Assembly: GCA_018384735.1 (NCBI GenBank)
Contig: JAHAXB010000034.1
Span: 19,659-83,658 of the forward strand
From: Eubacteriales bacterium
GTDB taxonomy: Bacteria; Bacillota; Clostridia; Christensenellales; UBA1242
Direction: 5' to 3'
Length of the DNA stretch: 64,000 nucleotides
The translations under genes and the position numbers were made by a program. The notes under the pieces are model-generated. The model was not told the origin of the DNA. It searched no databases and saw only the letters and a program-made list of their open reading frames with translations. Positions within the stretch are counted from its first letter, which is position 1. Each line of letters starts with the position of its first letter. This document shows, piece after piece, positions 2,225 to 58,573 of the stretch.

Positions 2225-4229
2225 TGGCACCTCCTAATTTACTCTTCACCGCTTTCGTGGCGGTATCGTCCTGCTTATTAAAGTTCGCATACTTGCTAAT
2301 GTAGTTGCGTCGGCTTTCGATATCATCACCCATCAAAGTGGTAATCAAGCGTTCCGCTTCCGCAGCATCATCCAAAGTGATACGGCACAATTTACGGGTC
2401 TTGGGGTTCATGGTTGTTTCCCACAGTTGTTCCGCGTTCATTTCACCCAAACCTTTGTAACGTTGGACGCTGGCGCCTTTAACCTTTTTCGTGACTTCTT
2501 TCAATTCGTTGTCATCGTAACAATAGTGACTGTAATCCTTTTTATAAACCTTGAATAACGGTGGCATACCCGTATAAACGTGACCTTGCGCAATTAAGTC
2601 TTTCATGTAACGGAAGAAGAAGGTCAACAGAATTGAACGAATGTGGCCACCATCTTGGTCAGCATCCGCCAAAATAATTACTTTGTGATAACGTAAATTA
2701 TCCAAGTTGAAATCTTCACCAATACCCGTACCTAATGCACCAATCAAAGTACGGAACTCTTCGTTTTCCAAAACTTGGTCAATACGTTTCTTTTCCGCAT
2801 TCAATGGTTTACCACGTAACGGCAAAATCGCTTGAATACTGCGGTCACGTCCCTGTTTTGCGGTACCACCCGCACTATCACCTTCAACGATGAAGATTTC
2901 GTTCATTTCCGGACGGCGACCACTGCAACTTGCCAACTTACCAATCAACACGCTGCCGTCAATACTGTTCTTACTACGGGCAATATCTTTGGCCTTACGC
3001 GCAGCTTCACGCACACGGGCGGCCGCTTTCGCTTTATTAATGATAATTTCTAGCAAACTTTTTTTGTCCGCTGATTTATCTGCATCCTTGAAATATTCCA
3101 ACAAACTGTTATAGGTAAAAGTTTCCACCGCAATTTTGGCTTCGGGGTTACCTAACTTAGTTTTGGTTTGTCCTTCAAACTGGACCTCTTGCATTTTAAT
3201 CGAAAGCACAGCGGTCATACCTTCACGGTAATCTTCCCCCTGTAAAGCGTTGTCTTTTTCTTTGAACAGACCGAACTGTTTACCTAATTGGTTAAAGGCA
3301 CGAGTAATCGCGCTCTTAAAACCGGTTTCGTGCGTACCACCTTCCGAAGTCGGAATGTTGTTGACGTACGAGAAAATACTTTCGACGAAACCATCGGTAT
3401 GTTGAATAGCGAAAGTAATCGGCATCTTGTCGGTTTGTCCAGCAATGACGAACGGTACTTTGTACAAAGTATTTTTACCTTCGTTCAGGTATGTAACGAA
3501 GTCCGCGACACCACCATCAAATTTATAAACACATTCGCGTGAAAATTCTGCATCATCAGGTTGAATGCGTTCATCAATCAAAGTAATTTCTGCACCCTTA
3601 TTCAGGAATGCCAATTCTTCCAAACGTTGTGAAATCACTTTGTAATCGAACTTAGCGTGATTGAACATTTCCTCGTCCGGCAAGAAATGCACGCGGGTAC
3701 CGTTCTTAATGGTGCGACCCACCACTTTTAATGGTGCATCCGCCACACCCCAGTGCATTTGTCCATCGTGTGGATCCATATGTGGCGAGAAACGCACATA
3801 GTGCTCTTTACCATCTTTATAGACGGTAACTTCGCAATAATCCGAAAGCGCGTTTACGACCGAAGCACCGACCCCGTGCAAACCACCCGAAAAACTGTAA
3901 TTGTTGTTATCAAATTTACCACCCGCGTGCAATTCGGTATAAACCATTTCGACACCGGAAATTTTTAATTCATGGTGAATATCAACCGGGATACCGCGCC
4001 CGTTATCTTCAACCGTAATGGAGTTATCGGAATGAATGATGACTAACAACTTATTACCGAAGCCGTTAGCGATTTCATCAATACCATTATCGACGATTTC
4101 CCACAACAAATGGTGCATACCCTTGGAACCCGTAGTACCAATGTACATACCGGGACGTTTACGTACTGCATCCAGCCCTTTTAATAATGTCAAATTACCA
4201 GCAGTATATGTCTGTTTTTCGTTTGCCAT
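2217..4229 (-). CDS. gyrB: Type IIA topoisomerase subunit B (GyrB/ParE family)
   Basis: Motifs [50 protein letters not shown] and [11 protein letters not shown] are present. Start chosen at ATG 4229 (MANEKQ), 7 nt after a TGgTATAAT box. The ORF-track start at 4253 lies upstream of that -10 box. Confidence 0.9.
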
Positions 4230-4236
4230 ACACGAT

Positions 4237-4264
4237 ATTATACCACTTTTCAAAAAACCATCAA
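4237..4264 (-). promoter_or_regulatory. gyrB promoter: TTGATG-N16-TGgTATAAT, with the -10 ending 7 nt before the ATG (leaderless configuration)
   Basis: Read directly on the minus strand: -35 at 4264-4259, -10 at 4242-4237, ATG at 4229. No Shine-Dalgarno can fit in the 7-nt gap. Confidence 0.6.
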
Positions 4265-4295
4265 AACAGTTATTTTATACAATATATTGTATATG

Positions 4296-4958
4296 TTATA
4301 CACCGGTAACCACTATATACAGAGCGTACTTTTTTAAACTTTCCGCCATTTGGCGAATTTCCGCGTCCGAATACGCCCCGACCGTGCGACACTGCTGAAT
4401 TTGCCAACAAGGAGCCCCCGCAATGATGGTTTGCCCCATATTTTGCAGGTCACCAACGGTTAAACGCGGGGACACCGTAGTGCGGAACAAGTAAGGAATG
4501 CGTTTTTGCGAGCGCAAGTACGCCGCCGTCATTAACACTTTATCAATCGGTAGCCCCGCAATGTCGCGGTACTTACTGGCAGGTGCTTTAATATCTAATG
4601 CAACGTAATCAACCAGCCCCGCTTCCACCACCGTGCGCACAATTTCGGGTCGCGTACCATTGGTATCCAATTTAATCAGCAATCCCAGCGAACGTAGTTG
4701 GCGTAAAATCGGCAATAACGTGGGAGATACGGTAGGTTCGCCTCCACTCACTACCACGGCATCCAGCCACGCGGTGCGCTTTTTCAATTCCGCCAAAACC
4801 ATGGCAAAGTCAAGACAATTTGCCCGTGTATCCAAGATGTGGTAGTTATGACAATAATGACAACGCATATTACACCCCGCCAAGAAAATTACCGCTGCCA
4901 TTTTACCAGGATAATCGATCAGGGATAACTTTTGCCAACCCGCAATTCGAATTGCCAT
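4296..4958 (-). CDS. nrdG: Anaerobic ribonucleoside-triphosphate reductase activating protein (radical SAM)
   Basis: Has the CNMRCHYCHN (CxxxCxxC) radical-SAM motif and lies immediately downstream of nrdD. Confidence 0.85.
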   Translation of the reverse strand: MAIRIAGWQKLSLIDYPGKMAAVIFLAGCNMRCHYCHNYHILDTRANCLDFAMVLAELKKRTAWLDAVVVSGGEPTVSPTLLPILRQLRSLGLLIKLDTNGTRPEIVRTVVEAGLVDYVALDIKAPASKYRDIAGLPIDKVLMTAAYLRSQKRIPYLFRTTVSPRLTVGDLQNMGQTIIAGAPCWQIQQCRTVGAYSDAEIRQMAESLKKYALYIVVTGV

Positions 4959-4961: not shown

Positions 4962-6761
4962 CTACTCCGTTTTCATCAGGCGATACTTTTTTCGGTCTAA
5001 ATATTCCTGACGCTTACCAGCGTGGTAATTCGCCACCGGACGTAAAAACCCGACCACACGACTCCACACTTCGGTTTCGGCGCCACAATGCTGACAACGC
5101 CACTGCTCGCCCGGCAAATAACCGTGACTGGGACAAATTGAAAACGTGGGTGTAATTGATAAATATGGCAACCGATACCGCGCGAAAACCTTTTGTATTA
5201 AGCGTTTAACCGCCTCAATGTCGTCCAATTTTTCGCCCGTATAAAGGTGCACCACCGTGCCACCCGTATACAAACTTTGCAGTTCGTCCTGCAATTCAAT
5301 CATCCGAAAAATGTCGTCCGTATAACCAACTGGCAACTGGGTGCTGTTCGTGTAATACGGTGCCTGCTTAGTGCCTGCGGTAATAATTTGAGGATAAGCG
5401 GATTGGTCCAAACGCGCAAAACGACTGGCCACCGTTTCCGCCGGAGTAGCTTCCAAGTTATACACATGCCCTGTGCTTTCCTGATAGGTGCGCAGTTTAT
5501 CCCGCAAAAAATGCATGACCCGTACCGCAAATTGCTGTCCAACCACAGAATCCAAACCCACGCCTTTCAAATTCAGCAAGCATTCCTGCATACCGACAAT
5601 GCCAATAGTACTGAAATGATTATACCAATAATTTCCCGTGCGCTGTTTTACCCCCTGCAAATAATACGCACTGTACGGGTACAAGCCCGCCGCGGTTTGC
5701 GCTTCCACCAGCCGACGCTTAATTTCCAAACTATCCTTGGCCAAGTCCGCCAAATGTTCTAAGCGCACGAAAAAATCACTTTCGTCAACTGCTTGGTATC
5801 CCAAACGCGGTAAATTCAAGGTTACCACTCCGATGCTTCCGGTTAGCGGATTTGAACCAAATAAGCCACCACCCCGTTTACGCAGTTCACGCACATCCAA
5901 CCGTAACCGACAGCACATCGAAACGGCATCTTCGGGGCGCAAATCCGCGTTGATGTAATTAGCGAAATACGGGATTCCGTATTTAGCTGCCATGGCAGTA
6001 ATTTGCGTCATAACTGAACTTTGCCAATCCGTAGCACGCGTAATGTTAATGGTGGGAATGGGAAATGTAAACGCCCGCCCTTGACCATCCCCTGCCAGCA
6101 TGACACGACAAAAGGCCAAATCCAAGCGTTCGATTTCGGCTTGATAATCACCATAGGTAGTTTCCTGTAATGCGCCCCCGATAACAACCGGCGTTTCCCG
6201 CAATGGTACCGGACAGTGGACATCCAAAGTCAGATTGGAAAACGGACATTGGAAACCACTTCGTGTGGCAACATTTAAATTGAAAACGAATTCGCGCAAT
6301 AAAACTTCCAGTTCGTCGTCGCTTAACCCATCGTGGCGAACAAATGGTGCTAAGTAGGTATCAAACGAAGACCACGCTTGCGCGCCCGCTGTTTCACCCT
6401 GTAAGGTAAAAGTCGCATTCACAATTTGGTTCAAGGCCTCATGTAATGTACGCGCGGGTGGCGCGGAAACTTTCCCCGGCACCCCAGTAAATCCCAAGAT
6501 TAACAACTGGTGCAAATCCCAGCCGGCGCAATACGGCCCGAAAAAACCTAAATCGTGCAAATGTAAAGCACCACTCCGGTGCGCAGTCGCAATTTCCGCC
6601 GGATAAATTTGGGTCAAACAATATTCACGCGTGAACGCCTCGCGCAAATGCAAATTCAGCCCACCCACTGAGCGTGCCGTATTCGCATTATTTTTCACGG
6701 TTAAATCATCGTCCCGCAAATAACGGGCGAATAAATCGCTGACAAAATCTTGACTGTCCAT
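4962..6761 (-). CDS. nrdD: Anaerobic (class III) ribonucleoside-triphosphate reductase
   Basis: The C-terminus has a Cys-rich Zn-ribbon-like segment (CPSHG...CQHCG) followed by a glycyl-radical-type SRVVGFLRPV. It is paired with nrdG. Start taken at ATG 6761; the track start at 6764 is TTG. Confidence 0.85.
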   Translation of the reverse strand: MDSQDFVSDLFARYLRDDDLTVKNNANTARSVGGLNLHLREAFTREYCLTQIYPAEIATAHRSGALHLHDLGFFGPYCAGWDLHQLLILGFTGVPGKVSAPPARTLHEALNQIVNATFTLQGETAGAQAWSSFDTYLAPFVRHDGLSDDELEVLLREFVFNLNVATRSGFQCPFSNLTLDVHCPVPLRETPVVIGGALQETTYGDYQAEIERLDLAFCRVMLAGDGQGRAFTFPIPTINITRATDWQSSVMTQITAMAAKYGIPYFANYINADLRPEDAVSMCCRLRLDVRELRKRGGGLFGSNPLTGSIGVVTLNLPRLGYQAVDESDFFVRLEHLADLAKDSLEIKRRLVEAQTAAGLYPYSAYYLQGVKQRTGNYWYNHFSTIGIVGMQECLLNLKGVGLDSVVGQQFAVRVMHFLRDKLRTYQESTGHVYNLEATPAETVASRFARLDQSAYPQIITAGTKQAPYYTNSTQLPVGYTDDIFRMIELQDELQSLYTGGTVVHLYTGEKLDDIEAVKRLIQKVFARYRLPYLSITPTFSICPSHGYLPGEQWRCQHCGAETEVWSRVVGFLRPVANYHAGKRQEYLDRKKYRLMKTE

Positions 6762-6795
6762 CAATTCATCTTATTGGCGGACAATCAATTTGGTG

Positions 6796-7053: not shown

Positions 7054-7618
7054 TATCGTGATCCTCCCCTTCCACTAAGTGGTTGTAAATAAATTCATAA
7101 ATTTCGGGCGCCATATCTTTCCAACGTGCAGCAGCCCGCATCGCGTCGGCACGTGATGGCACACGTAATTTCAACTCCATCAAATTATACGGACGACCGG
7201 TATAATCTTTAATCATAAAAACTGCCGTTTGGGTACCATCCGAATTTTTGAAATAATCGATGCGATACTCTTGGCTACGTTTCATGCGCAATTTATTTTC
7301 GTCGGTATATTTGATAATGCTTTCACGAATGGAAGCCGGAATTTTCGTCCAAAAATGAGCTAAACAGTCGCGACCATCTTTGGTCAAAGTATACATTAAA
7401 TCTCCCGCAGAAGTCTTCCCCACTACAAACTTTACGTCCACAATTTGCGCCAAAGCTTCGCGGTAATCCATGTAGGACATCAAGTCCGGATTGGACATGA
7501 TAATTTCGGACAAAGTATTTTCTGACAATGGAATATCCATCTTTTCAAAGATGAAAAGCAAAATTATTTTGCGAGTTATCTCATCAGCAACAAAATAAGT
7601 ACTACGATTAGTGTTCAC
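7040..7618 (-). CDS. DUF4364-like putative transcriptional regulator (recalled family, uncertain)
   Basis: 192-aa intact ORF whose ends overlap both valS and the TSCPD gene. The family assignment is from memory of Clostridial DUF4364 proteins only. Confidence 0.4.
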   Translation of the reverse strand: MNTNRSTYFVADEITRKIILLFIFEKMDIPLSENTLSEIIMSNPDLMSYMDYREALAQIVDVKFVVGKTSAGDLMYTLTKDGRDCLAHFWTKIPASIRESIIKYTDENKLRMKRSQEYRIDYFKNSDGTQTAVFMIKDYTGRPYNLMELKLRVPSRADAMRAAARWKDMAPEIYEFIYNHLVEGEDHDNASV

Positions 7619-9764
7619 CGGTCAAATTATATAATAGTTCCTGAAATCTGGCAAGTTTCTCTTGTTCTTCCTTAACTAAGGCCGCCGGTGCTTTGGCTAC
7701 AAAACCAGGGTTACCCAACATACGGGAAGAACGTGCAATTTCGGCGCGGTAATGCTCCACCAACGCCTTGGTGTCAACCGGTGCGGGGGCTACTGGTTCG
7801 GCTTTCGCTTTGGTTTGCGGTTTACATTCTTCGATGTACTTGTCGCAGAAATCCGTCCAGAACCATTGTTGTAATTCGTTTGCTGCAATGCCAAATTCGT
7901 ACTTTTCGTAACGGCGCGTAATGGTACGAATAATTTTATTCAAACTGGTTTGCATCCAATGTTTGGAACCCTTGACCGGAGTTGGGAATGGTTCAAACGC
8001 CAAATCAGTGTTGTGTCCTAATTCATGCCAAATTTGTTCGGTAATGTACGGTGCAATCGGGTGCAACATTTTAATGAAACTTTCCAAAGCATTGACCAAC
8101 AAAGCGTTATCCTTGTGCATTAAAACGAACTTGGTCGCATTCCAAATCTTGTTCATGAAATAACGTGCTTTGGTAATTTTTTCATCACCATAGTTCGGGT
8201 CACGGTCCAAGCTGGAGCCAAACAACAAGGAATAACGCAAAACGTCACAACCGTGTTGTTCGATGATGTCCAACGGGTCAATACCATTGCCCAAGGATTT
8301 ACTCATTTTGCGACCTTGACTGTCACGGACTAAGCCGTGCAGCAAAACCGTGTGGAATGGTAATTGTTTTGTATGGTATAAGCCCGAAAAGACCATGCGG
8401 ATAACCCAGAAGAAAATGATTTCGTAAGCCGTAACCAAAACATCGGTCGGATAGAAATAGTCATAATCAGCTTGGTTTTTGTTCAAAGTCACAAACGGCC
8501 ACAACGCGGACGAAAACCAAGTATCCAATACATCGGTTTCCCCCTCGATTGGGATGCGGTGTCCGGAAATTAACTGGCGCGAAATACACCAATCTTTTAT
8601 GTTATTCAACCAGTGTAAATAAATTTTTTGGAACTTCTTTGGTACGATGTTCAAACCATTGTTCAAAGCTTCAATCGCGGGTTGCGCCAAATCATGCATT
8701 TTCACAAACCATTGTTTAGAAATGGCGGGTTCAACCATTTGGTGGCAACGGTAGCATTGACCAATATTGGAAACATGTTCCTTGGTCGCCACCAGTAACC
8801 CCTGCGCTTGTAAATCTTTAACCACCGCAGCACGAGCTTCCGCTACGGTCATGCCGGCATACTTGCCAACATACGCGCCGAACAATTTGCCATTTTCGTC
8901 GATGACCTTAATATAGGATAGGTTATGGCGCTCCGCAACTTCGTAGTCGTGGTGATCGTGCGCAGGTGTAATTTTAACCGCACCAGTACCAAATTTCATA
9001 TCCACGGATTCGTCGGCGATGACCGGAATTTCGCGGTTACAAAGTGGCAATGGAATGGTTTTACCGATAATGTTTTGATAGCGTTTATCATTCGGGTTGA
9101 CCGCCACCGCGACATCACCGAACAAAGTTTCGGGACGCGTAGTAGCAACACGAATGGGTCCGTATTGAATCGTCCAAATTTGGCGTTTGACTTCATTGTA
9201 TTCAACCTCAATTTCGGACAAGGCGGTATGGCAGGTCGGACACCAGTTAATCATGCGTTCGCCTTGGTAAATGTAACCATCTTTGTACAAACGGTGGAAA
9301 GCTTTGTTGACCTCCTCCTTACAATGGTCATCCATAGTAAAGGTAAAACGGGTCCAGTCGCAAGACAAGCCCAAGCGTTTGAACTGGTTGCAAATAATGG
9401 CTTGATATTTATCATACCACTTTTGAATGCGTTCCATGAATTGTTCACGGGTCAAGTCGTTTTTGTTCAGTCCCTCTTTTTTTAATTCCTCCACCACTTT
9501 GGCTTCGGTCGCAATGGCAGCATGGTCGGCGCCGGGCAACATCAAAGTTTCGTAGCCCTGCATACGTTTGAAACGAATTAATGCATCGATAATGGTACAG
9601 TTAAAAGCGTGACCAATATGTAATTTACTGGTAATGTTCGGCGGTGGCATAATTACCGTGAAAGGTTTCTTATCACGATTGACATGGGCTTGGAAAACAT
9701 TTTCATCCACCCAATGTTGGTTATAGTAGGCCTCGCAGGCCTTAAAATCAAAAATTTTATCCAC
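7608..9764 (-). CDS. valS: Valyl-tRNA synthetase, unusually short (718 aa) with non-canonical order of anticodon-domain segments
   Basis: Motifs PPPNITSKLHIGH (HIGH), TRPETLFGDVAVAV, DTWFSSALWPF and KMSKSLGN (KMSKS) are present, plus a C-terminal coiled coil with GFVAKAP. GTG start lies 13 nt after the ftsK stop. Confidence 0.85.
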   Translation of the reverse strand: MDKIFDFKACEAYYNQHWVDENVFQAHVNRDKKPFTVIMPPPNITSKLHIGHAFNCTIIDALIRFKRMQGYETLMLPGADHAAIATEAKVVEELKKEGLNKNDLTREQFMERIQKWYDKYQAIICNQFKRLGLSCDWTRFTFTMDDHCKEEVNKAFHRLYKDGYIYQGERMINWCPTCHTALSEIEVEYNEVKRQIWTIQYGPIRVATTRPETLFGDVAVAVNPNDKRYQNIIGKTIPLPLCNREIPVIADESVDMKFGTGAVKITPAHDHHDYEVAERHNLSYIKVIDENGKLFGAYVGKYAGMTVAEARAAVVKDLQAQGLLVATKEHVSNIGQCYRCHQMVEPAISKQWFVKMHDLAQPAIEALNNGLNIVPKKFQKIYLHWLNNIKDWCISRQLISGHRIPIEGETDVLDTWFSSALWPFVTLNKNQADYDYFYPTDVLVTAYEIIFFWVIRMVFSGLYHTKQLPFHTVLLHGLVRDSQGRKMSKSLGNGIDPLDIIEQHGCDVLRYSLLFGSSLDRDPNYGDEKITKARYFMNKIWNATKFVLMHKDNALLVNALESFIKMLHPIAPYITEQIWHELGHNTDLAFEPFPTPVKGSKHWMQTSLNKIIRTITRRYEKYEFGIAANELQQWFWTDFCDKYIEECKPQTKAKAEPVAPAPVDTKALVEHYRAEIARSSRMLGNPGFVAKAPAALVKEEQEKLARFQELLYNLTGEH

Positions 9765-9777
9765 GAATTACAGTTTA

Positions 9778-12516
9778 CTATAAACCATACAGTTCTGCAA
9801 CCTGTTCCCTGGTTGCAATCACTTCACGCGCTTTGCCATTACCAAAATCAGCACCGACAAAACCCATTTGTTCCAACTGGTCCATAATACGACCCGCACG
9901 ACCAAAGCCAACCGCGAACTTACGTTGAATTTCCGAAATCGACAAAGTACGGCGGACATTGTTATCACGCACCGCATAACGCAATACCGCCACCAATTTC
10001 GGGTCTTGACCGCCCACATCGGGACCGTCGCCACCATCACTGAAACCGGCTGCTGCACCATCGGGAATACCATTTAAAATCAAATCTTCAATTTCCGCGT
10101 TGTATTCGGACGGGTTCTTTTCGCGGACGAAGTTGGTCACCTGACGTAATTCGTCGTTGGTCATGAAACAGCATTGAATACGGTCAATACCTTTGGCGGT
10201 CATAAACAACATATCACCACGACCCATCAAAGTTTCGGCGCCAATTTGATCCAAGATGGTACGACTATCCACACCGCTCAAAACACGGAACGCAATACGC
10301 GTACCAATATTCGCCTTAATAACACCACTGATGACATCGACACTGGGGCGTTGAGTTGCCAAAATAATGTGAATACCCGCAGCACGGGCTTTTTGCGCCA
10401 AACTTTGGATACAGTCTTCGACCTCTTTCTTGTTGCGCGACATCAAGTCCGCAGTTTCATCCACAACCATGACAATGTACGGCATAGCCGGGATTTGACC
10501 GCTCTTATACGCCGGCAAAGCTTGGTACAAAGCAATATTGTTGACGTGTTGACCTTGCAACAAATCGTAACGGTGGTCCATTTCACGAATTAACCATTTA
10601 AAAGCGTTGACCGCTTGCGTTGCGTTGGTAATACACCTTTCGACCAACATGTGTGGCAAGCCGTCGTACATACCAAGTTCGACACCACCCTTCATATCAA
10701 CCAAGACCAATTTCAAATCTTCCGGACTGGTCTTATAAATCAAACTGGTCAAAATCGTGTTGATACAAACCGATTTACCCGAACCGGTAGTACCAGCAAC
10801 CAACAAGTGTGGCATTTCGGCTAAGTCTGCGATAATCGGGTCGCCGTTAATGTTTTTACCAATACAGATTGCCAACGGACTTTTGTGAGCAATAAATTCG
10901 CGCGAACCCAACAAGTCCTTAATCGAAACCGTACCAATCGTGTGGTTAGGTACCTCAATACCAATCGCGTTCTTACCCTCAATCGGGCTTTCCATACGGG
11001 TATTATTCGTTTTCAAAACGAAGTTCATATCGTCACGCAAGTTTTCAATCTGCGCAACACGCGTTCCCAGTTCCGGCACAATTTCAAAACGCGTAACCGC
11101 GGGCGCCACATTGAAACTGTGCACACGCGCTCGGACATTGTATTGTTGGAACAACTCGTTTAACTTAACTTCTTTTTCACTGGCTTCCGCGTTAAATTGG
11201 CTTAAATCCATACTCTGGGTGTGGATTAAATCCAATGTCGGTTTAATGTAACGAACATTTTTGTAGGTATCCCCCGCCGGTTCTTTTTTCTCGCTGGGAA
11301 TATCCAAAGTCAATGACGTTTGGTTGTTCAAATTTTGGATGACCGAAGAACTACTGCGACGGCGACTGGAAGTCGGACTGGCTGGCGTTGCGTCCGGACT
11401 GGCCGGTGGCGTCCAGTTATTGCTACCGCCCTGCCATTGCATACCACTGTTTTGTCCCCAACCCGTGTTAGTTTGATCCCACGGCGTACTGGGTTGCGTT
11501 GGTGTTGGTTGCACGGGGGTTACCGGTTGTTGCGGAATACCATTCGACAACGGCATGGTTGCGGACGGCATATACGGATAGGCGGGCGCGCCCATGGTAG
11601 GCATTTGTGGCATAATTGGACTGGGCGTTGGTGCCGTTGGCGTGGACCAACTGGAACTATCCAAGCCCTGCCACGGAATAGCAACCCCATCGTTATACAT
11701 TCTTAAACCACCGGTTTGGGCATTAGCTGCATTAATGGACGCTTGGTTAATGGCTTCGGGTGAACTTAAATTTTGCAAGTTAATTGGGCTGCCGGCAGTG
11801 GTTTTAGTGTTGCCGGTTTTGGGCAACGCCCCCAAGCCCAACAAACTTTTGTTGGCGTCAAAGTTACGGCGGTTTTCGCGCATGATTTCTTTATTGGCAA
11901 TTTGTAATTTTTCGTAAAGTTCGGCTGCGTTCTTCGCGTAATCATTACTGGTTTCCACAGCTTCGGGTTCTTTAGTTTCCAAAGTAACAATCCGTTGTTC
12001 ATGGTTCTTGGTAATAACACGGGAAATTACCAAAATCAAACCTGCCAAATAAAGCATACCCAACAGTAAGTAGGTGCCAACCGTGCCAGAAATTACCAAT
12101 AACAAATATGATGGCAAAGCGAACAAGACACCACCAGGGGTTAAATGTGAACTGGAAAAGCAATAACTTAAATAACCGCCGAGGTCGGTGTTTTTACCGC
12201 CGTTCACCACAGATTGGGTAAAGCCAACGTGCATTGCGGTAAAGAAAGCGAACAACATAATCAGCGAACCCCAAAGATACTGCGGATTGATTTTGATGCG
12301 CTTACCAGTACGCAGACAAATGCCAAAAACCGCCAGCACCACAAAAACACAAAAGATGTAAACTCCGCAAACGCCATACAAGAAATTACTAATGACACCA
12401 CCCAAACGGAACAACATTAAAAGTGCACCAATGCCTGATGCCCAAATAACAACATCACCCCACGGAAATGGGCGTTTGGCATTTTGTTTCTTTGTACGAT
12501 GGATAGTACCGTCCAT
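9778..12516 (-). CDS. ftsK: DNA translocase FtsK/SpoIIIE
   Basis: N-terminal TM helices, a P/Q/T-rich linker, Walker A VAGTTGSGKS, and a C-terminal winged-helix-like ISEIQRKFAVGFGRAGRIMDQLE. Start is either ATG 12516 (8 nt after TATAAT) or ATG 12522. Confidence 0.85.
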   Translation of the reverse strand: MDGTIHRTKKQNAKRPFPWGDVVIWASGIGALLMLFRLGGVISNFLYGVCGVYIFCVFVVLAVFGICLRTGKRIKINPQYLWGSLIMLFAFFTAMHVGFTQSVVNGGKNTDLGGYLSYCFSSSHLTPGGVLFALPSYLLLVISGTVGTYLLLGMLYLAGLILVISRVITKNHEQRIVTLETKEPEAVETSNDYAKNAAELYEKLQIANKEIMRENRRNFDANKSLLGLGALPKTGNTKTTAGSPINLQNLSSPEAINQASINAANAQTGGLRMYNDGVAIPWQGLDSSSWSTPTAPTPSPIMPQMPTMGAPAYPYMPSATMPLSNGIPQQPVTPVQPTPTQPSTPWDQTNTGWGQNSGMQWQGGSNNWTPPASPDATPASPTSSRRRSSSSVIQNLNNQTSLTLDIPSEKKEPAGDTYKNVRYIKPTLDLIHTQSMDLSQFNAEASEKEVKLNELFQQYNVRARVHSFNVAPAVTRFEIVPELGTRVAQIENLRDDMNFVLKTNNTRMESPIEGKNAIGIEVPNHTIGTVSIKDLLGSREFIAHKSPLAICIGKNINGDPIIADLAEMPHLLVAGTTGSGKSVCINTILTSLIYKTSPEDLKLVLVDMKGGVELGMYDGLPHMLVERCITNATQAVNAFKWLIREMDHRYDLLQGQHVNNIALYQALPAYKSGQIPAMPYIVMVVDETADLMSRNKKEVEDCIQSLAQKARAAGIHIILATQRPSVDVISGVIKANIGTRIAFRVLSGVDSRTILDQIGAETLMGRGDMLFMTAKGIDRIQCCFMTNDELRQVTNFVREKNPSEYNAEIEDLILNGIPDGAAAGFSDGGDGPDVGGQDPKLVAVLRYAVRDNNVRRTLSISEIQRKFAVGFGRAGRIMDQLEQMGFVGADFGNGKAREVIATREQVAELYGL

Positions 12517-12556
12517 TAACATAAATTATAAACAAAAATTCGCTTTTCGTAAAATA

Positions 12557-13792: not shown

Positions 13793-13846
13793 ACCATTAT
13801 ATTAGCCAAAAACATAAAATAACGCAAATCATAATATACATAAGCA

Positions 13847-16631: not shown

Positions 16632-16638
16632 AAGGGCT

Positions 16639-44675: not shown

Positions 44676-44724
44676 AAGTATTTATAATTATAAACCATAT
44701 CTGACAAAAGTTACAATCTAATTT

Positions 44725-46875: not shown

Positions 46876-46881
46876 ATTTCA

Positions 46882-46947: not shown

Positions 46948-46952
46948 GAATT

Positions 46953-49315: not shown

Positions 49316-49534
49316 AATAGTGACCACTATAACACACTTATTTCGCTTTGTAAACAGGGCGAATTATCGCGTGTATCCTTGCTCCTTATTTTGGGTTTGT
49401 AAAGCACAATCAATCATAACTTTACGCACATAATCATTCATGTTTAAGTTCTCGCGTACTTCACGCACATTTAAGGAAGTGATAACATAATGCGGGCATT
49501 ATCAACAACCCGGTTGCCGTGTAAATATTTAAAA

Positions 49535-51061
49535 TTACAACGTACGGTCGGCTTCCATGGTGCGGGCGCGCAAGACACTATTGGCAAGCACTTGTGCCGC
49601 ATATTCACAGGGAGATACACCAAGCACATCCGCAGCTTTAGATTCCCCGTAATGGTCAATTATGTGTTGTAAATTGGCTTGGTTAGTATTGGATAACGGA
49701 ATACCGGCGCGTTGCATCTTTGCTGCCAAAACTTCAAGATTACGTCGGTTTCCGACAATAGCACACGGCGCAATCGGACGACTCTTTGAACTGAAACTTG
49801 TTTGTGCAAAAATTTTGCCGACCATGTCATTAAAATCGACGGTCTTTAATTGCGGAGCCAAACGCTCCAAATCAGATGCGGATTGAATTAAATGATTGTC
49901 AACCAGCATTTTCACAATGGCAATGGCTTTGTTGATACCAATGTTAAAATCTTCATCTTCATAGTCGGTCGAATCGGTATGTTGCACAACATCAAGTTTT
50001 TCGCGTTCGGCAATTTGATAAAATTGTTGTTCGCTTTCGTGGTCATCCCACCCCCACATACCAACTTTTTCCGCGCGATAGCCCAACTGCGACAAAAATG
50101 GTGCCGCCAAACCTTTGGCATTTTCACTTTTGTAGCCCATAACATTCACACCGGGGTTAAGTTCCTTGACGGTTTCCACTTCGGCAGCAGGACACAAAAT
50201 CCAAGCATTTTGGGTTAAATCCACGCCCCCACGGGTGTAAGTATCGTTCGGTTCCAACGAACCAATCTTGTCGCTGGGAATTTCGGCCATGGGTTGCAAA
50301 ATACAATAATGGCAATGATCCCAGTTGCCCCAATTATGCGAAGATACTTCATCGTTCATGGATAAATGTACGGTGTCGCGTTCCAATAAATAACTGTATT
50401 CGTACTCCTTGCCGTCAATTTGGATTTTTTCGTTTTGTATTACCCCAGCTTCTTTAATGGTGCTAATCCGATTGTTTTCCGGCATAATGTCCATTTTATG
50501 CACCGCGCATAAAGCCGCTTTACCTTTGGTTGCGTATTCGCGCGGTCGTTCAAAAGTAGCATAGTCACTTTCGTCCAAAACTGGTGTAATGTCATGATTC
50601 TCTAGTAACTTGATGGCCTCGGCAGGACTAAGATTTAATTCGCCCAAACATTGCGCCATATCTTTGTGATAATAGTCGTATTCAGCTGCTTCAATTTTTT
50701 GTAAGATTCCACTAGCATTAATTTGTAAATCAACTTGTTTTTCTGCAATTTCCATCTCACTGGTTAATTTAGAAATTCTATCAGGTAAAGTTTTTAGTTC
50801 AGCTAATGCAGCCTGATATTTTTTATAAGCTTTACGCGTTTTAGCACTAAAGATACGCTTCAATACCGAAATATTTTGATTACGAAATTCTCCAGTTTTA
50901 TGTTTCTCATTTAATTGCAAAGTTTCTAATTTTCTTTCATAATCCCATATTTTATCGCGCAACACAACAACATCAGCACGCATTGATTCTTTTTCAGCCT
51001 TCAGCGCTTGCAATTTGGCTTCGGCCTCTGCCAACATTAATTTTTGCACATCCTTAAACAT
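49535..51061 (-). CDS. Hypothetical protein (508 aa): coiled-coil N-terminus plus unknown globular C-terminal region
   Basis: Intact ORF. TGcTATTTT ends 7 nt before the ATG. A His/Trp-rich block SSHNWGNWDHCHYCILQP is present. No family recognised. Confidence 0.6.
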   Translation of the reverse strand: MFKDVQKLMLAEAEAKLQALKAEKESMRADVVVLRDKIWDYERKLETLQLNEKHKTGEFRNQNISVLKRIFSAKTRKAYKKYQAALAELKTLPDRISKLTSEMEIAEKQVDLQINASGILQKIEAAEYDYYHKDMAQCLGELNLSPAEAIKLLENHDITPVLDESDYATFERPREYATKGKAALCAVHKMDIMPENNRISTIKEAGVIQNEKIQIDGKEYEYSYLLERDTVHLSMNDEVSSHNWGNWDHCHYCILQPMAEIPSDKIGSLEPNDTYTRGGVDLTQNAWILCPAAEVETVKELNPGVNVMGYKSENAKGLAAPFLSQLGYRAEKVGMWGWDDHESEQQFYQIAEREKLDVVQHTDSTDYEDEDFNIGINKAIAIVKMLVDNHLIQSASDLERLAPQLKTVDFNDMVGKIFAQTSFSSKSRPIAPCAIVGNRRNLEVLAAKMQRAGIPLSNTNQANLQHIIDHYGESKAADVLGVSPCEYAAQVLANSVLRARTMEADRTL

Positions 51062-51105
51062 TTAATTAAAAATAGCAAATTTTTTCCTCTATGTAAAGAT
51101 TAAAT

Positions 51106-51543: not shown

Positions 51544-52668
51544 TCACAAACGAATTTTGTCGCGCAAACTTTTGTGGTAAGTAATCGCAAACCGGTGTGC
51601 TTCATCGCGAATACGTTGTAACAAGCGCAAAGCATAACTATGATGCGACAAGACAATAGGTTCATCTTGCGTGGTGGTAAACACTAATTCAAACCGTTTG
51701 GCTAGTGAGATATAGGTAATGCCGTCCGCCTTTGGTACCGCGCCCAGTTGTCCCTTACCGCCATCAATTACGATAATATCTGGATACGCCCATTCCTTAT
51801 GTTTCAAACGGCGGGTCAAAGTTTCCTGCATCGACAAAAAGTCGTTATTGCCTAAACCGTGTTTCATGCGGAAGCGCCGATACTGGCTTTTGTCCGCCAC
51901 CCCGTCCACAAAAACCACCATGGACGCCACCACATACTCGCCCGCGGTGTGCGAAATATCATAACATTCAATCCGGCGCGGGGTCTTCGGCAAGTTTAAC
52001 ACTTCGCCCAATTCACGGCAGGCACCCAAAGTAAACGCGTTCGCATCTTCGGCGGTGGTTTGCACGCGGGCGCGGGTTTTCAGCCGGTTGACCATTTGCA
52101 AAACATTGCGGTAAGCAATCGCCAATTCAAATTGTTGCATGGAACTGGCTTCCTGCATGCGCTTGGTCATGACCGCCTCGACCTCGTCGTAGCGTTTGCC
52201 GGATAAAAACTCGGCCGCTTGTACGGGGTCGTCATGGTAAATGCTGCGGATAATGTCCATCAAATACTTCACGTAAATGCCGTTAAAATAGGGACCAAAG
52301 ATTTGACCTGCCCCGCTGTTAGTGCGGATAACCCCGATTTTACCGTCCGGCGTAATTTGGATATAGGGGAACTTTTTATCGTCTTTCAAAAGAATATTAT
52401 ATTTGGGTTGGTGTTTGTGAATTAAGTTGGCTTCCAAAAACAATGCGTCGTTTTCCGTATTCACCACAAACCACTCTAAATCAGCAATGTGTGCCACCAT
52501 CGCGGTAGCTTTGGCATCGTGCGCACCAATGAAATATGACGACACCCGGTTTTTCAAATTCTTGGCTTTTCCAATATAAATTATTGTGCCAGCGGAATCT
52601 TTCATAACGTAAACACCGGGGTCTTTCGGCAATGTTTTTAACTTTTGCTTAATATTTATCATTGTCAT
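51544..52668 (-). CDS. uvrC: UvrC-like excinuclease subunit, shortened (374 aa), lacking the C-terminal (HhH)2 domain
   Basis: GIY-YIG domain (PGVYVMKDSAGTIIYIGKAKNLKNRVSSYF), UVR-like helix (FELAIAYRNVLQMV), endonuclease domain (RIECYDISHTAGE...PDIIVIDGGKGQL...RIRDEAHRFAI). The ORF then ends. Confidence 0.7.
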   Translation of the reverse strand: MTMINIKQKLKTLPKDPGVYVMKDSAGTIIYIGKAKNLKNRVSSYFIGAHDAKATAMVAHIADLEWFVVNTENDALFLEANLIHKHQPKYNILLKDDKKFPYIQITPDGKIGVIRTNSGAGQIFGPYFNGIYVKYLMDIIRSIYHDDPVQAAEFLSGKRYDEVEAVMTKRMQEASSMQQFELAIAYRNVLQMVNRLKTRARVQTTAEDANAFTLGACRELGEVLNLPKTPRRIECYDISHTAGEYVVASMVVFVDGVADKSQYRRFRMKHGLGNNDFLSMQETLTRRLKHKEWAYPDIIVIDGGKGQLGAVPKADGITYISLAKRFELVFTTTQDEPIVLSHHSYALRLLQRIRDEAHRFAITYHKSLRDKIRL

Positions 52669-52697
52669 TTGGCTATAAATAGTATATCCTATTATTT

Positions 52698-55040
52698 ATG
52701 AATAACCAACAACCTAAAAAAAAGAAATTTAATTGGTGGTGGCTGGTCATTGGTATCATCGCCATCTTTTTATTAGTCACTTTAACTACTCCATCGTCCA
52801 AACTGAAATCCATCAGTTTGACTCAGTTGCGTAACGACGCAGCGGTCGAATACAAAGACGGCGAATATGTTAAAAGAACCGACGCAGAAAATAAAATCTA
52901 TGGCGCCTATAAAATGGACAACAATTACTACATTATTTATTTATCCACGATAAATGGCACCAACCAACAACACCTTTTGAAAGCCGACGACATTAACAAT
53001 ATTACTAATAACCCGGCCAACATTAAATATTATGCGGACGCGGTGGTTTACGACAGCACGGGTACCGCAATGCGCATCTTAATGACCAACCCCGACATCG
53101 TAGTTGACTCTGGGGCAACCCCAGGCAGTTGGACGGATTGGATTTTACCGGTCATCTACATTTTAATGTTCTTGGGTGTGATTTTCATTTTGTGGCGCAG
53201 CATGGCAGGTCGTAGTGGTTTAGCTTCCATGACCCAAAACCGCGCTACCGTAGTTTTCAACGGACCAACCCGTTTCAGCGATGTCGCAGGTATCGACGAA
53301 GAAAAAGAGCAAGTTGCCGAAATCGTGGACTTCTTACGTAACCCACGCAAATATGTGGAAATGGGCGCACGTATTCCCAAGGGTGTTTTACTGGTCGGTC
53401 AACCAGGTACGGGTAAAACCCTATTAGCCAAAGCCATTGCGGGCGAAGCGGGCGTACCGTTCTTCTCGCTTTCGGGCAGTGATTTTTCCGAAATGTTGGT
53501 CGGCGTAGGTCCCGCCCGTATGCGCGACTTGTTCGAACAAGCCAAAGCCCATGCACCGGCGATTATCTTCCTTGACGAATTAGATTCGATTGCCCGCATG
53601 CGCGGAGTTGGTGCTTCGGGTGTCGCGGAAGAAAACGAACAAACTTTGAACCAATTATTGGTTCAAATGGACGGTTTCTCCAAATCCGAAGGTGTCATTG
53701 TGTTGGCAGCTACCAACCGCCCCGACGTTTTGGATCCGGCAATTTTGCGTCCGGGTCGTTTCGACCGTCAAATCATTGTGCAAGTTCCTGACGTTGATGG
53801 TCGTGAAAAAATCTTGAAAGTTCATGCTCGTAACAAACCATTGGGCGATGTTGATTTGAAACGTGTAGCCCAAATTACCAGCGGTTTCACTGGTGCGGAC
53901 TTGGAAAACCTATTGAACGAAAGTGCGATTATCGCCGCCAAAGATAACCGCAAAAAAATCTCCATGCAAGACATCACCGAAGGTATCAACAAAGTTTTGA
54001 TTGGACCCCAAAAGAAATCACGCATCATTACCGAAGAAGATAAACGCATTACGGCTTACCACGAATCTGGTCATGCGATTATTTCCAAAGTCTTGATGCC
54101 GGAACAAACTGTACAGGAAGTTTCGATCATTCCCAGAGGCATGGCGGCTGGTTACACCCTCACCAATAACCAAAACGACGAACACAACCACCAAAGTCTG
54201 ACCATGTTAAAAAACCGTTTGGCCATGTTGTTGGGTGGTCGCTCCGCCGAACAGATTTTCATCGGCGACATTTGCACGGGTGCCTCCAACGACATCAAAG
54301 TAGCAACCGAGTTAGCCGAAAACATGGTGACCAAATGGGGTATGAGCAGCAAGTTGGGACCACTCTACTACGGCAAAGAAAGCGAAGTTGCATTACGCCT
54401 TTATAACCAAAAGAATTTGAGCGAATCCGTACAAGCCACCATTGATAACGAAATCAAAGACTTAATCATGGAAGCGCAAACCCGTTGCCAAAAAGTTTTG
54501 CACGACAACGCTGCCAAAGTTAAAGTGATGGCGGAATTGTTGCTTGATAACGAAACCATCTATTTGGAAGATATTAACATGGTCATGGAAGGCAAATCTG
54601 CCAAGGAAATTAACCAAGCCATGGTCACACGCCGTGAACAACAAAAACAAAGCGCGAATGACGAACGCATTAACGACATGATTAACCAAATTGAACCATT
54701 GTTAAAACGCTCAGTGGAAATTGCGGAATTACACTTAGCCGAAGGCTTGGTCACCGAAGAACACATGACCAAATTGCGCCAAAACTGCGAATTAGCGCGC
54801 GATTACATCCGCCGTACCGGCAAGGTACCACCGATTCCCACCATCGATTTTGAATCTTTGGACAACTACCCCAGTTTGGTTGCCATCAAGGACGAACCCA
54901 AGGTTGAAACCAAAGTAGCGGAAAAAACCACGGCTCCGGTCAAAAAGACTGCGGCTAAGAAAACTACAACCGCCAAGAAAACCACCACAACTAAAAAGAC
55001 AACAAAGGAAACCAAAGATGGAAACGGAGACGGTCAGTAA
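52698..55040 (+). CDS. ftsH: ATP-dependent zinc metalloprotease FtsH with extended extracytoplasmic region and K/T-rich C-terminal tail
   Basis: GQPGTGKT Walker A, IIFLDELD Walker B, the AAA second region of homology, and the AYHESGHAI zinc motif. 780 aa. Confidence 0.92.
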   Translation: MNNQQPKKKKFNWWWLVIGIIAIFLLVTLTTPSSKLKSISLTQLRNDAAVEYKDGEYVKRTDAENKIYGAYKMDNNYYIIYLSTINGTNQQHLLKADDINNITNNPANIKYYADAVVYDSTGTAMRILMTNPDIVVDSGATPGSWTDWILPVIYILMFLGVIFILWRSMAGRSGLASMTQNRATVVFNGPTRFSDVAGIDEEKEQVAEIVDFLRNPRKYVEMGARIPKGVLLVGQPGTGKTLLAKAIAGEAGVPFFSLSGSDFSEMLVGVGPARMRDLFEQAKAHAPAIIFLDELDSIARMRGVGASGVAEENEQTLNQLLVQMDGFSKSEGVIVLAATNRPDVLDPAILRPGRFDRQIIVQVPDVDGREKILKVHARNKPLGDVDLKRVAQITSGFTGADLENLLNESAIIAAKDNRKKISMQDITEGINKVLIGPQKKSRIITEEDKRITAYHESGHAIISKVLMPEQTVQEVSIIPRGMAAGYTLTNNQNDEHNHQSLTMLKNRLAMLLGGRSAEQIFIGDICTGASNDIKVATELAENMVTKWGMSSKLGPLYYGKESEVALRLYNQKNLSESVQATIDNEIKDLIMEAQTRCQKVLHDNAAKVKVMAELLLDNETIYLEDINMVMEGKSAKEINQAMVTRREQQKQSANDERINDMINQIEPLLKRSVEIAELHLAEGLVTEEHMTKLRQNCELARDYIRRTGKVPPIPTIDFESLDNYPSLVAIKDEPKVETKVAEKTTAPVKKTAAKKTTTAKKTTTTKKTTKETKDGNGDGQ

Positions 55041-57266: not shown

Positions 57267-57288
57267 ATTTTTTTCTCCTTTTTAATGA

Positions 57289-58227
57289 TTAACGATTTAA
57301 GATTGATTTAATCTCGTAAACAATTTCCCCGTCGTGATATTTAACCTTACCGATATGTGCCAGCAACAGCGTACGCATAAAGGACATTACGGCCAACACT
57401 ATGCCGGCGAAGCCCAAAGTAAATAAAATCCATAAAACTACTGGATGTGCGGTAGCAACGGTGCCAATTCCAATCCCAAAGGCCACAGCTGATAACATCA
57501 AAAATAACAAGCCCCACCAAGTTGAAACCGAACTGACATGACCAGTTTTGTGGTAACTGGTATTACCACGACCGCGACGGCGTAGTTGTTCCAGTTTGGC
57601 TTTGGCTTCGGTGTCGGTATATTCGCTGGCATACCAAAATTCCTTGGTTTCCCAACCAACCCAGTTATTCATCGTACGCATATATTTAGTTTTGGACGGA
57701 TTGTCGCGCAAAACAGCAACCACATCTGCGGTATACAATTCTGCGTTCACGATACCATTGAAGTACCCATCCAAGACAAATAATTTGCACGCCAAGCGGG
57801 TCAAACGGTCGGTGATTAAGGCATTACGACGGCGCCAACCGGTAAATTGACGGTAACCATAAATAATTGGTACCCCGCTTTGTAAATGTTCGTTCAACAA
57901 ACTTTCTAAGAAACCCATCGGGTTCTGAATATCAATTTCCGCAATCATGACGATGTCACCATTGGCCACACTCAACCCCGCGGTAACCGCTGTATGTTTA
58001 CCTGAGCGTTCCGCCAAAGTTACGATACGGAAATTTTGGTGTTTACGCGCGAACTCCAACATCATCAAGCGTGATTCGTCCGTGCTACAATCATCGACCG
58101 CGATAATTTCCCATTGGTACTGCTTTTTCAAACGGATGTTTTCCAAGTCGGCAATGTACTGTGCCAAAACTTCTTTCAAAACAACTTGCTCATTGTAAAC
58201 TGGTAGCACTAACGAAATTTTCCCCAT
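57289..58227 (-). CDS. Family 2 glycosyltransferase with C-terminal TM helices (polyprenyl-phosphate glycosyltransferase-like)
   Basis: ISLVLPVYNE, AVDDCSTDES, and two C-terminal TM segments. TTGCCT-N17-TATCAT ends 6 nt before the ATG. Confidence 0.7.
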   Translation of the reverse strand: MGKISLVLPVYNEQVVLKEVLAQYIADLENIRLKKQYQWEIIAVDDCSTDESRLMMLEFARKHQNFRIVTLAERSGKHTAVTAGLSVANGDIVMIAEIDIQNPMGFLESLLNEHLQSGVPIIYGYRQFTGWRRRNALITDRLTRLACKLFVLDGYFNGIVNAELYTADVVAVLRDNPSKTKYMRTMNNWVGWETKEFWYASEYTDTEAKAKLEQLRRRGRGNTSYHKTGHVSSVSTWWGLLFLMLSAVAFGIGIGTVATAHPVVLWILFTLGFAGIVLAVMSFMRTLLLAHIGKVKYHDGEIVYEIKSILNR

Positions 58228-58321
58228 GCTTATATGATACCCATAAGACCATTTTAAGGCAAATAATTTTTCACTTAGTAATGCCTTGCCGAACTAAAAC
58301 GAAAGTATTATACTGGGCACA

Positions 58322-58573
58322 ATGATCAATGTTTGGGCAAAAATTGTCATCGACCACAAAGTTAAACAAAGTGTGGTTTTGCCGGTCGACCCCGATAATT
58401 TTTACGACGGAGTGACACAAATCGCGGCCGCATTAAAAATTCCAACGCCCGTCATTACGCAAACCCAAATTGACCACTTTTGGGAGTTTAACCTCCTGAA
58501 ACTAAAACAGCGCGACTTTATCGAAAGTATCCCCTTTGATATTTTGGAATTTAATGCTATGATTGAGAAATGA
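58322..58573 (+). CDS. Hypothetical protein (83 aa) translationally coupled to mnmE
   Basis: TTGCCG-N17-TATACT ends 7 nt before ATG 58322. The stop overlaps the mnmE start (ATGA). No family recognised. Confidence 0.45.
   Translation: MINVWAKIVIDHKVKQSVVLPVDPDNFYDGVTQIAAALKIPTPVITQTQIDHFWEFNLLKLKQRDFIESIPFDILEFNAMIEK

Follow-up and report, generated by a model that had tools for sequence, protein, structure and literature searches.

Promoters abutting the start codon point to abundant leaderless or near-leaderless mRNAs in a gut lineage of uncultured endospore-forming Clostridia

We describe a 64,000-nucleotide (nt) stretch of a Eubacteriales bacterium assembly (GCA_018384735.1, contig JAHAXB010000034.1, positions 19,659 to 83,658 of the forward strand; hereafter the window, meaning the whole stretch) in which many genes have a promoter -10 box ending only a few nucleotides before the start codon. 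In all likelihood, these start-adjacent promoters yield leaderless or near-leaderless mRNAs. The arrangement was first noticed at twelve genes in a sequence-only reading of the window that proposed widespread leaderless mRNAs in a spore-former, an interpretation that the analyses below support. The DNA itself shows the promoter motifs, where they lie, that they are conserved and that they are confined to one lineage, a group of uncultured endospore-forming Clostridia from the guts of ruminants, other herbivores and termites. Overall, the sample comprised ~95 kb from one organism, made up of the window and of held-out sequence past both of its ends (L113 and L114, not part of the material of the sequence-only reading), plus orthologous loci of relatives (labelled L005, L050, L085-L088, L091-L097 and L116-L118).

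The window has a guanine-plus-cytosine (GC) content of 45% and ~52 genes. Nineteen of the 52 (~37%) are of leaderless type, with a -10 box at 5-8 nt from the start codon and essentially no Shine-Dalgarno (SD) site: gyrB, nrdD, a DUF4364 gene, valS, ftsK, an M16 peptidase gene, pnp, a small gene at 22434, sigK, spoIVA, a deaminase gene, argS, a 716-amino-acid (aa) gene, dxs, a 508-aa gene, ftsH, a GT2 gene, an 83-aa gene and mnmE. The original count of at least twelve was therefore true but an undercount. Four further genes (polysaccharide deacetylase, 624-aa, 209-aa and uvrC-like) have the box at 9-12 nt and bring the share to 44%; 25 are SD-led by AGGAG-type sites, mostly operon-internal genes plus hrcA, groES, dnaK, gap and g520, and four cannot be placed clearly in any class. 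Genes without an SD site nearly all carry a -10 box, and in the leaderless-type genes the space for an SD is taken up by the -10 box and the discriminator. Eighteen of the 19 leaderless-type starts have no GGAG, GAGG or AGGA in the 4-18 nt before them; the exception is argS, with GAGG at 12 nt. The start codon is ATG in 17 of the 19 and GTG in DUF4364 and valS (ATG in the valS of relatives). The genes that had been offered as an SD-led contrast (groES, dnaK, gap, hrcA, portal, the ftsL-like gene and 61687) are as described.

Alignment of 24 sites, 20 from the window and 4 from held-out sequence, gave the overall consensus TTGaCa-17-TATAAT-6/7-ATG. Counts by position were T21 T20 G12 A12 C16 A14 in the -35 box and T23 A24 T17 A17 A14 T24 in the -10 box; fifteen sites have a 17-nt spacer, sixteen a discriminator of 6-7 nt and six an extended TGn. 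With a discriminator of 6-7 nt, the A of the ATG falls on the usual +1 position. By these features, the elements at most sites look like real sigma-70/sigma-A housekeeping promoters. The twelve hexamers of the sequence-only reading, with their spacings and start codons, are all present exactly as it gave them, ten on the minus strand and two, dxs (46953) and the 83-aa open reading frame (ORF; 58322), on the plus strand. Its remark that most have a TTGnnn -35 element at 16-18 nt holds in exact form for seven of the twelve, and three more have TTTAC(G/T/A).

The pattern might have arisen by chance from A/T-rich intergenic DNA together with a selective choice of hexamers and starts, since the sequence-only reading accepted loose hexamers (TATAGA, TATTTT, CATACT) and twice moved to a second ATG. 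A generic sigma-70 scan of window positions 1-20000 at a 9/12 threshold indeed found no overall excess (35 sites vs 34.1 in shuffles). For the chance tests, the gene set was built by an unbiased rule in which the longest ORFs were picked greedily and the first ATG taken as the start, giving 28 operon-first genes that were compared with 2000 dinucleotide-preserving shuffles. Even so, TANNNT stood at 5-8 nt in 11 of the 28 (12 with curated starts) vs 4.1±1.8 in shuffles (p≤0.0005), so that hexamers at the claimed spacing exceed the expectation from AT-rich composition. The positional peak is sharp, with 2, 4 and 6 of the 28 genes at 5, 6 and 7 nt and a background of ~1.1 at each position from 13 to 39 nt; counts are also high at 9-12 nt (9 genes) and zero at 13-16 nt. 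The composite TTGNNN-N16-18-TANNNT-N5-8-ATG matches 17 of 2075 ATGs in the window, 8 of these being gene starts, and in the scan of positions 1-20000 the only three sites scoring ≥10/12 all end 7-8 nt before a start codon, those of gyrB, ftsK and the DUF4364 GTG. Relatives of similar GC, in which the signal stands at 7%, the conservation across species and the recurrence in held-out sequence, all presented below, also count against chance, an explanation that is effectively refuted and keeps a probability barely above nil. A test that looked for a strong promoter followed by any ORF of ≥80 aa was noisy (6/23 in the window vs 50/885 in relatives) and was set aside because spurious ORFs and TTG/GTG starts count in it; two outgroup loci scored 3/11 and 4/15.

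Comparative material came from a clade found via homologues of dxs, M16 and spoIVA; protein identity in it is 69-92%, and synteny is conserved. Logan and ENA metagenome contigs include sequences of polynucleotide phosphorylase (PNPase, the pnp product) identical to that of the window. Among GTDB representatives, the water-buffalo cecum genome 'Clostridia bacterium RGIG7181' is closest (PNPase identity 94%), and the next-nearest relatives are Christensenellales-type metagenome-assembled genomes (MAGs) at ≤65%. GC content differs within the clade, from 45% in the window organism to 36-43%, mostly below 40%, in relatives (L005, L085-L088, L091-L097), a sizeable compositional shift with synteny kept. 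Within the clade, both hexamers (-35 and -10) are conserved, as is how far they lie from the ATG, at gyrB, ftsK (8 genomes), M16 (9), pnp (6), the 716-aa gene, dxs, GT2, the 83-aa gene, argS, the deaminase and the 508-aa gene. Pairwise identity is 0.87 in the -10 hexamer and 0.67 in the -35 hexamer, with 0.52 in the spacer and 0.50 in the discriminator, whose length is kept at ~5-8 nt while its sequence drifts.

Several of these promoters do not lie in front of operons as judged by spacing. The label 'operon-first' in the sequence-only reading fails in this sense for ftsK, sigK and spoIVA, whose promoters lie at, or within, the 3' end of the gene before them, and the same placement was found for valS, DUF4364, argS and mnmE. 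Where promoters lie inside upstream genes (DUF4364, valS, argS, mnmE), identity between species at third codon positions rises from ~50% to 60-93%: the final 45 nt of valS, which hold the DUF4364 promoter, show 93% vs 51% in the rest of that gene, and the 3' end of the 83-aa gene, which holds the mnmE promoter, shows 79-86% vs 48-54% elsewhere in it. Such frozen third positions are as expected from overlapping non-coding constraint.

A rival explanation takes the TATAAT-like element for a translation signal, A/T-rich and of non-SD type, embedded in longer transcripts that have leaders, like the Bacteroidota type termed group B by GeneMarkS-2. The element is A/T-rich and sits where a ribosome-binding site would be, and ftsK, valS, argS and mnmE directly follow a gene on the same strand, all of which this idea would accommodate. 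It would leave unexplained the conserved -35 element (TTGNNN/TTTACN) at 16-18 nt beside most sites and the extended TGn in a quarter of them (6/24), and divergent gene pairs here are only 29-94 nt apart, with no room for other promoters. Group B motifs precede all genes, operon-internal ones included (PMC6028130); unlike group B, internal genes here that do not have the element carry AGGAG. We consider this alternative very improbable, and return to start-adjacent promoters as the preferred account.

That account depends on the start codons. Starts predicted in MAGs are prone to error, and those called by Prodigal vary between orthologues, so the true starts could be imagined to lie downstream behind internal SD sites, with the promoters driving ordinary short 5' untranslated regions (UTRs). 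NCBIfam confirms gyrB, ftsK, the M16 peptidase, pnp, sigK, spoIVA, the dCMP-deaminase-like protein and dxs, and its profile alignments begin at residues 1-10 for gyrB, pnp, sigK, spoIVA, dxs and M16, which places the claimed ATGs in register with the family N-termini. No in-frame start preceded by an SD was found within the first 40 codons in 17 of the 18 genes checked, the 508-aa gene being the exception. In ftsK, codon-level conservation opens at the proposed ATG (ATGGACGG(T/G/A)AC(T/A), with only synonymous changes). The two choices of a 'second ATG' were borne out by relatives: the upstream ftsK ATG at 12522 is missing in 6 of 8 genomes while the geometry of TATAAT at 8 nt is constant, and L116 does not have the upstream spoIVA ATG while CATAAT stays at 7 nt. 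Mis-assignment of starts thus retains almost no credibility as an explanation. Miscalls do occur, with Prodigal starts at an ATG within the -10 box or discriminator in some cases (L118 pnp, L088 GT2, L085 624-aa). The L118 pnp is called as 705 aa from a start within the -10 box, an extra ATG in the L088 GT2 discriminator misleads the program, and spoIVA is 489 aa by PGAP vs 491 aa by Prodigal. Miscalled starts were noted at L118 18270, L088 21334, L085 7639 and L118 7560, and such errors are likely to be systematic across MAG catalogues of the lineage.

The trait is specific to the clade and a termite-gut sister group. The pnp gene is of leaderless type in every clade genome examined (TGaTATAAT-7-ATG in RGIG7181), whereas in ~75 relatives at ≤65% identity essentially all pnp genes have an AGGAG SD 6-9 nt before the ATG; likewise, dxs in outgroups with ~60% dxs identity has an AAGGAGA SD instead. 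A census by the first-ATG rule over genes of ≥100 aa, with leaderless-type defined as TANNNT at 5-8 nt and no SD, and with SD genes tallied apart, gave 22% leaderless-type and 33% SD in the window, 35-48% and 15-39% in clade loci, and 31% and 13% in the termite-gut group (45-50% M16 identity), vs 8% and 50% in the dxs-60% outgroups and 7% and 53% among 970 genes in 1.4 Mb of other relatives. The 7% represents no enrichment, because a control spacing of 25-28 nt gives 12%; the signal is therefore not seen in ~1.4 Mb of related Clostridia analysed identically. For first genes in the window vs relatives, Fisher tests gave an odds ratio of 5.0 for leaderless-type (p=4e-4) and 0.25 for SD (p=0.003). 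One neighbour, L050 (CANQYX010000011.1, Lapin-018 bin38; PNPase identity 63%), has an SD-led pnp yet several convincing TTGNNN-17-TATAAT-6-ATG sites, and the trait may be graded among neighbouring lineages.

Held-out sequence of the same organism repeats the pattern. Three of its seven first genes have it outright, a 181-aa gene (TTGCAA-17-TATACT-8-ATG), lysS (TTGCAT-17-TATATT-6-ATG; L113 12798-14366, just past the right end of the window) and a 142-aa gene (TAAAAT-6-ATG), and two more have it loosely, gpr (GGGCATAAT-6-ATG, with a CATAAT box at 6 nt) and rpsT (L114 8305-8346; TTGCAA-17-TGtTATAAT-9-ATG). Of the remaining two, gerA fits neither class clearly and a MazG-like gene is clearly SD-led; all four operon-internal genes are SD-led. 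The lysyl-tRNA synthetase encoded by the L113 lysS is of class I (PF01921), which is less common among bacteria, and its gene lies behind a leaderless-type promoter. The 9-nt discriminator of rpsT, ACCTCCTAT, includes CCTCC, which is the anti-SD sequence and not an SD.

Promoters of sporulation genes appear to be placed in the same way. CATA-type -10 boxes stand at the same distance before spoIVA, sigK, a spoVD-like gene, spoVA and gpr, in keeping with the suggestion of the sequence-only reading that alternative-sigma promoters share the placement; the boxes resemble those of the sigma-E/K/F/G -10 kind, a putative assignment. At spoIVA (24924..24961, minus strand) the site reads GTTATAAC-14-CATAAT-7-ATG(24926); the element follows GTYATAA-14-CATAAnnAT, and CATA begins 13-14 nt before the ATG in four genomes. 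At sigK (23418..23460, minus) it is CAC..-GCATATAGAG, with a sporulation-sigma-type -10 box whose CATA begins 15 nt before ATG(23420); a conserved CAC...CATATAGAG with the same 15-nt distance is found in five genomes (the window, L095, L116, L117 and L118). The gene for the spoVD-like penicillin-binding protein (32843..32858, minus; CATAGAGAT) has CATA beginning 13 nt before a probable start at ATG(32845), a start inferred from L116 and L118 and less certain, and it shares with spoVAC and gpr a CATA- or CAATA-type box at 12-14 nt.

Some observations weigh against reading these genes as strictly leaderless. A -10 box at 9-12 nt in four to five genes (polysaccharide deacetylase, 624-aa, 209-aa, uvrC-like, rpsT) implies leaders of 2-6 nt, and the polymerase might begin 1-3 nt before or after the A. 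The sites of nrdD (TAAGAT, no -35) and ftsH (TATCCT) are weak, and several promoters lie 13-45 nt behind a same-strand gene with no terminator, where possible read-through transcripts would need SD-independent internal initiation. The count rests on ~95 kb plus orthologous loci, a smaller scope than a whole-genome census, and the first-ATG census rule is crude, scoring only ~53% SD even among SD-rich relatives. The assignment of the sporulation boxes to specific sigma factors is tentative, being based on resemblance to consensus sequences.

The same facts bear on a milder rival, in which the promoters are real and transcription starts a few bases upstream, giving leaders of 3-8 nt and SD-independent initiation by 30S subunits at an unstructured, A/U-rich 5' end. 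Besides the 9-12 nt genes, this is favored by the CATA of sigK, which begins 1-2 nt farther upstream than that of spoIVA, and by the fact that the choice of transcription start site (TSS) can vary by ±2 nt. Set against this, with the modal 6-7 nt spacing the canonical +1 falls on the A of the ATG, and the poorly conserved discriminators show no conserved alternative ribosome-binding motif. Moreover, transcripts with a 5' UTR of 0-5 nt are treated as leaderless and behave so; a cut-off of <8 nt has been used for the class (PMC10783764). We regard it as unlikely that such short leaders are the general rule, and start-adjacent promoters that give leaderless or near-leaderless mRNAs remain the preferred explanation.

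From the placement of these promoters we infer both the exact TSS and the mode of translation initiation. The RNA polymerase holoenzyme would begin transcripts on the A of the ATG or, for genes with the box at 9-12 nt, 1-5 nt before it, most promoters being served by the housekeeping sigma-A and a subset before sporulation genes by sporulation sigma factors. Transcription starting at or near the ATG would give mRNAs with no room for an SD, and their 5'-terminal AUG would be bound directly by 70S ribosomes, or by 30S subunits with initiation factor 2 and fMet-tRNA, independently of SD:anti-SD pairing, as in Actinobacteria and Deinococcus. The other genes, mostly operon-internal plus the leadered first genes hrcA, groES, dnaK and gap, would rely on ordinary AGGAG sites; since half of the genes use AGGAG, the anti-SD must stay functional. 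The dual system would be a heritable trait of the lineage, in which a promoter next to the start codon has replaced the SD-bearing leader at ~40% of genes.

The individual sites in the window are as follows, beginning with minus-strand genes. The gyrB promoter (4227..4264) is TTGATG-16-TGgTATAAT-7-ATG(4229), and L095 has TGaTATAAT at 7 nt with a wholly different discriminator. For nrdD (6759..6773), TAAGAT-6-ATG(6761) has no SD and no clear -35 and is a weaker case, although the motif is identical in L095. The DUF4364 gene (7616..7654), with TTGCCA-17-TATAAT-7-GTG(7618) inside the valS 3' end, scores 11/12, among the top two promoter matches of the window. The valS site (9762..9800), TTGCAG-17-TAAACT-7-GTG(9764), overlaps the ftsK stop codon, the valS start lying 13 nt past it, and relatives have an ATG at 6 nt. 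TTTACG-17-TATAAT-8-ATG(12516) precedes ftsK (12514..12553) with the same geometry in eight genomes; a TATAAT at 2 nt before the first ftsK ATG was rejected because relatives conserve the one at 8 nt before the second. The M16 peptidase gene (13790..13827) has TTGCGT-17-TAATAT-6-ATG(13792), with TAATAT or TATCAT at 6 nt in nine clade genomes and a -10-like hexamer at 6-8 nt in most termite-group loci; a TATAAT at 3 nt was rejected on the same grounds. The pnp site (16629..16667), TTGCAC-17-TGcTAAAAT-7-ATG(16631), is conserved in L005, L095, L096, L116 and L118. The dCMP-deaminase-like gene (27430..27468) has TTTACT-17-TATACT-7-ATG(27432), its boxes conserved in L116 and L118 with a spacing that is 7 nt in L118 and reads 5 nt in L116.

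Also on the minus strand, two short-leader sites precede the 624-aa gene (44673..44716; TTGTAA-18-TATAAT-11-ATG(44675), spacing 10-11 nt in five genomes) and the 209-aa gene (49313..49354; TTTACA-17-TGtTATAGT-10-ATG(49315)). The 716-aa gene (46873..46910) has TTGCTA-17-TGaTATAAT-6-ATG(46875), at 5-6 nt in five genomes; the 508-aa gene (51059..51097) has TTTACA-17-TGcTATTTT-7-ATG(51061) and lies directly 3' of a tRNA; and the GT2 gene (58225..58262) has TTGCCT-17-TATCAT-6-ATG(58227). Plus-strand sites are those of polysaccharide deacetylase (13832..13849; CATAAT/TAATAT 9-11 nt before ATG(13847), short-leader type), argS (41134..41171; TTTAAT-17-TACAAT-6-ATG(41169), inside the 3' end of the upstream gene, with TACAAT/TATCAT/TATTAT at 6-7 nt in five genomes), dxs (46918..46955; TTGACT-18-CATACT-5-ATG(46953)), the 83-aa gene (58286..58324; TTGCCG-17-TATACT-7-ATG(58322)) and mnmE (58536..58572; TTGATA-16-TGcTATGAT-6-ATG(58570), inside the 3' end of the 83-aa gene). 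Overlapping back-to-back promoters (52662..52709) serve ftsH on the plus strand (TTGTCA-17-TATCCT-7-ATG(52698)) and the uvrC-like gene on the minus strand (TTGGTT-17-TATACT-12-ATG(52668)). The spacer between them (52669-52697) is exactly 29 nt and nearly invariant in five genomes, so that the promoters must overlap, each -35 box lying within the first codons of the other gene. The 'UvrC' itself (51544-52668, minus) is a 374-aa protein with only GIY-YIG and UvrC_RNaseH domains, a short form common to the clade; canonical UvrC is ~600 aa.

The small gene divergent from terL (22422..22436, plus strand) has TATCAT-6-ATG(22434). A view of this ORF as spurious was overturned, as it proved to be conserved and preceded by a leaderless-type promoter of its own, and is called by Prodigal in L001, L116 and L118; the gene (22434-22652, plus) is 57-72 aa in relatives, with a conserved ATGTATCC start. 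It could encode a regulator of the adjacent phage-like cluster between sigK and pnp (16849-22427, minus; L116 12510-18269, L118 12542-18121), the genes of which are SD-led. The cluster encodes a large terminase, a portal protein, a ~403-aa capsid-like protein, several ~107-110-aa proteins and a ~284-aa protein, and it is syntenic between species with only 80-87% SpoIVA identity, which suggests a conserved domesticated element (gene transfer agent-like or a phage-derived particle) and not a recent prophage remnant. Elsewhere in the window, a clade-conserved 264-aa protein (39256-40050, minus) matches only the N-terminal domain of S-adenosylmethionine synthetase (PF00438), its gene lying 47 nt downstream of a tRNA gene (40098-40169). 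A riboswitch before this metK-N-like gene was considered and rejected, the conserved 'CACCCCGACCA' being the tRNA 3' end.

Rfam found no T-box, riboswitch or ribosomal-protein leader in the 95 kb (window, L113 and L114), only two tRNAs, although this sequence contains valS, argS, lysS, pnp and rpsT. These genomes appear to forgo 5'-UTR regulation where it is usual, with valS, argS and lysS having no T-box and pnp and rpsT no leader, and leader-based regulation (T-boxes, the autoregulatory leaders of pnp and rpsT) appears to have been given up along the way. As a corollary, the leaderless architecture would bring very compact intergenic DNA and little 5'-UTR regulation. The leaderless set would include essential housekeeping genes such as gyrB, pnp, ftsK, ftsH, dxs, rpsT and those for aminoacyl-tRNA synthetases. 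The evidence tilts slightly towards the broader proposal that a deep Clostridia lineage (RGIG7181, GCA_024405525.1 and GCA_964370495.1, all MAGs from ruminant or other herbivore guts, with the termite-gut sister group) independently switched at least ~40% of its genes, and possibly at least half of its transcription units, to leaderless expression, in both the housekeeping and the sporulation sigma regulons.

If so, the lineage would be the first spore-forming group with low GC and the standard code to show an Actinobacteria-like leaderless transcriptome, and a natural system for studying how and why SD-led leaders are abandoned, given SD-led sister groups only ~60-65% identical in protein sequence. 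The same orthologues (pnp, dxs) would record a sharp, phylogenetically datable switch from SD-led to leaderless inside the Bacillota, a phylum regarded as the most SD-dependent. Confirmation would also imply that sporulation sigma factors can drive leaderless mRNAs, and, on the practical side, standard gene callers of the Prodigal type mis-set starts in MAGs of the lineage.

Leaderless transcription at this frequency lies outside the norm for Bacillota, as the sequence-only reading had said and as published work agrees (PMC7438776; 10.1101/2020.08.10.244764; PMC6028130). TSS maps of Clostridioides difficile list 6-15 leaderless mRNAs among >1600 TSSs, and ~90% of 5' UTRs there have aGGAGg (PMC7438776; 10.1101/2020.08.10.244764). 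That species shares with the present lineage its class, its sigma-A and sporulation sigma repertoire and its AGGAG SD sites, whereas here ~37-44% of the sampled genes have a start-adjacent promoter and no SD. Zheng et al. 2011 used TANNNT ~10 bp upstream as a mark of leaderless genes and detected it in 56 of 209 Firmicutes genomes, where the leaderless share was 2.4-16.6% of genes with a mean of 4.2% (PMC3160421); the type of signal is the same, and the share here is higher, at ~37% (19/52), or 44% with the 9-12 nt class.

The closest likeness is to GeneMarkS-2 group C genomes, in which a Pribnow box lies 6-8 nt from the start and an estimated 25-50% of operons are leaderless, as in Mycobacterium tuberculosis; the group holds 90% of Actinobacteria, 97% of Deinococcus-Thermus and 36 of 1064 Firmicutes, or 3.4% (PMC6028130). 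As there, the box precedes many first genes while SD sites serve internal and remaining first genes, and the leaderless fraction in our sample of ~95 kb is within the 25-50% range of the group. The clade differs in its 37-45% GC, in consisting of endospore-forming Clostridia and in a -10 box that is a full TATAAT accompanied by a clear -35, not just TANNNT. Group C genomes with genetic code 11 are almost all high-GC, the low-GC exceptions being code-4, Mycoplasma-like genomes with 30-60% predicted leaderless transcripts (10.1101/2022.07.25.500264). The latter share with our clade low GC and the use of a promoter motif together with an SD motif; they are wall-less, non-sporulating, reduced genomes, whereas the present lineage uses TGA as a stop codon and has a sporulation programme (sigK, spoIVA, spoVA, gpr, gerA). 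Leaderless-rich bacterial genomes, a few Firmicutes included, have thus already been described, and this lineage is a new and atypical member of that set: low-GC, standard-code and endospore-forming.

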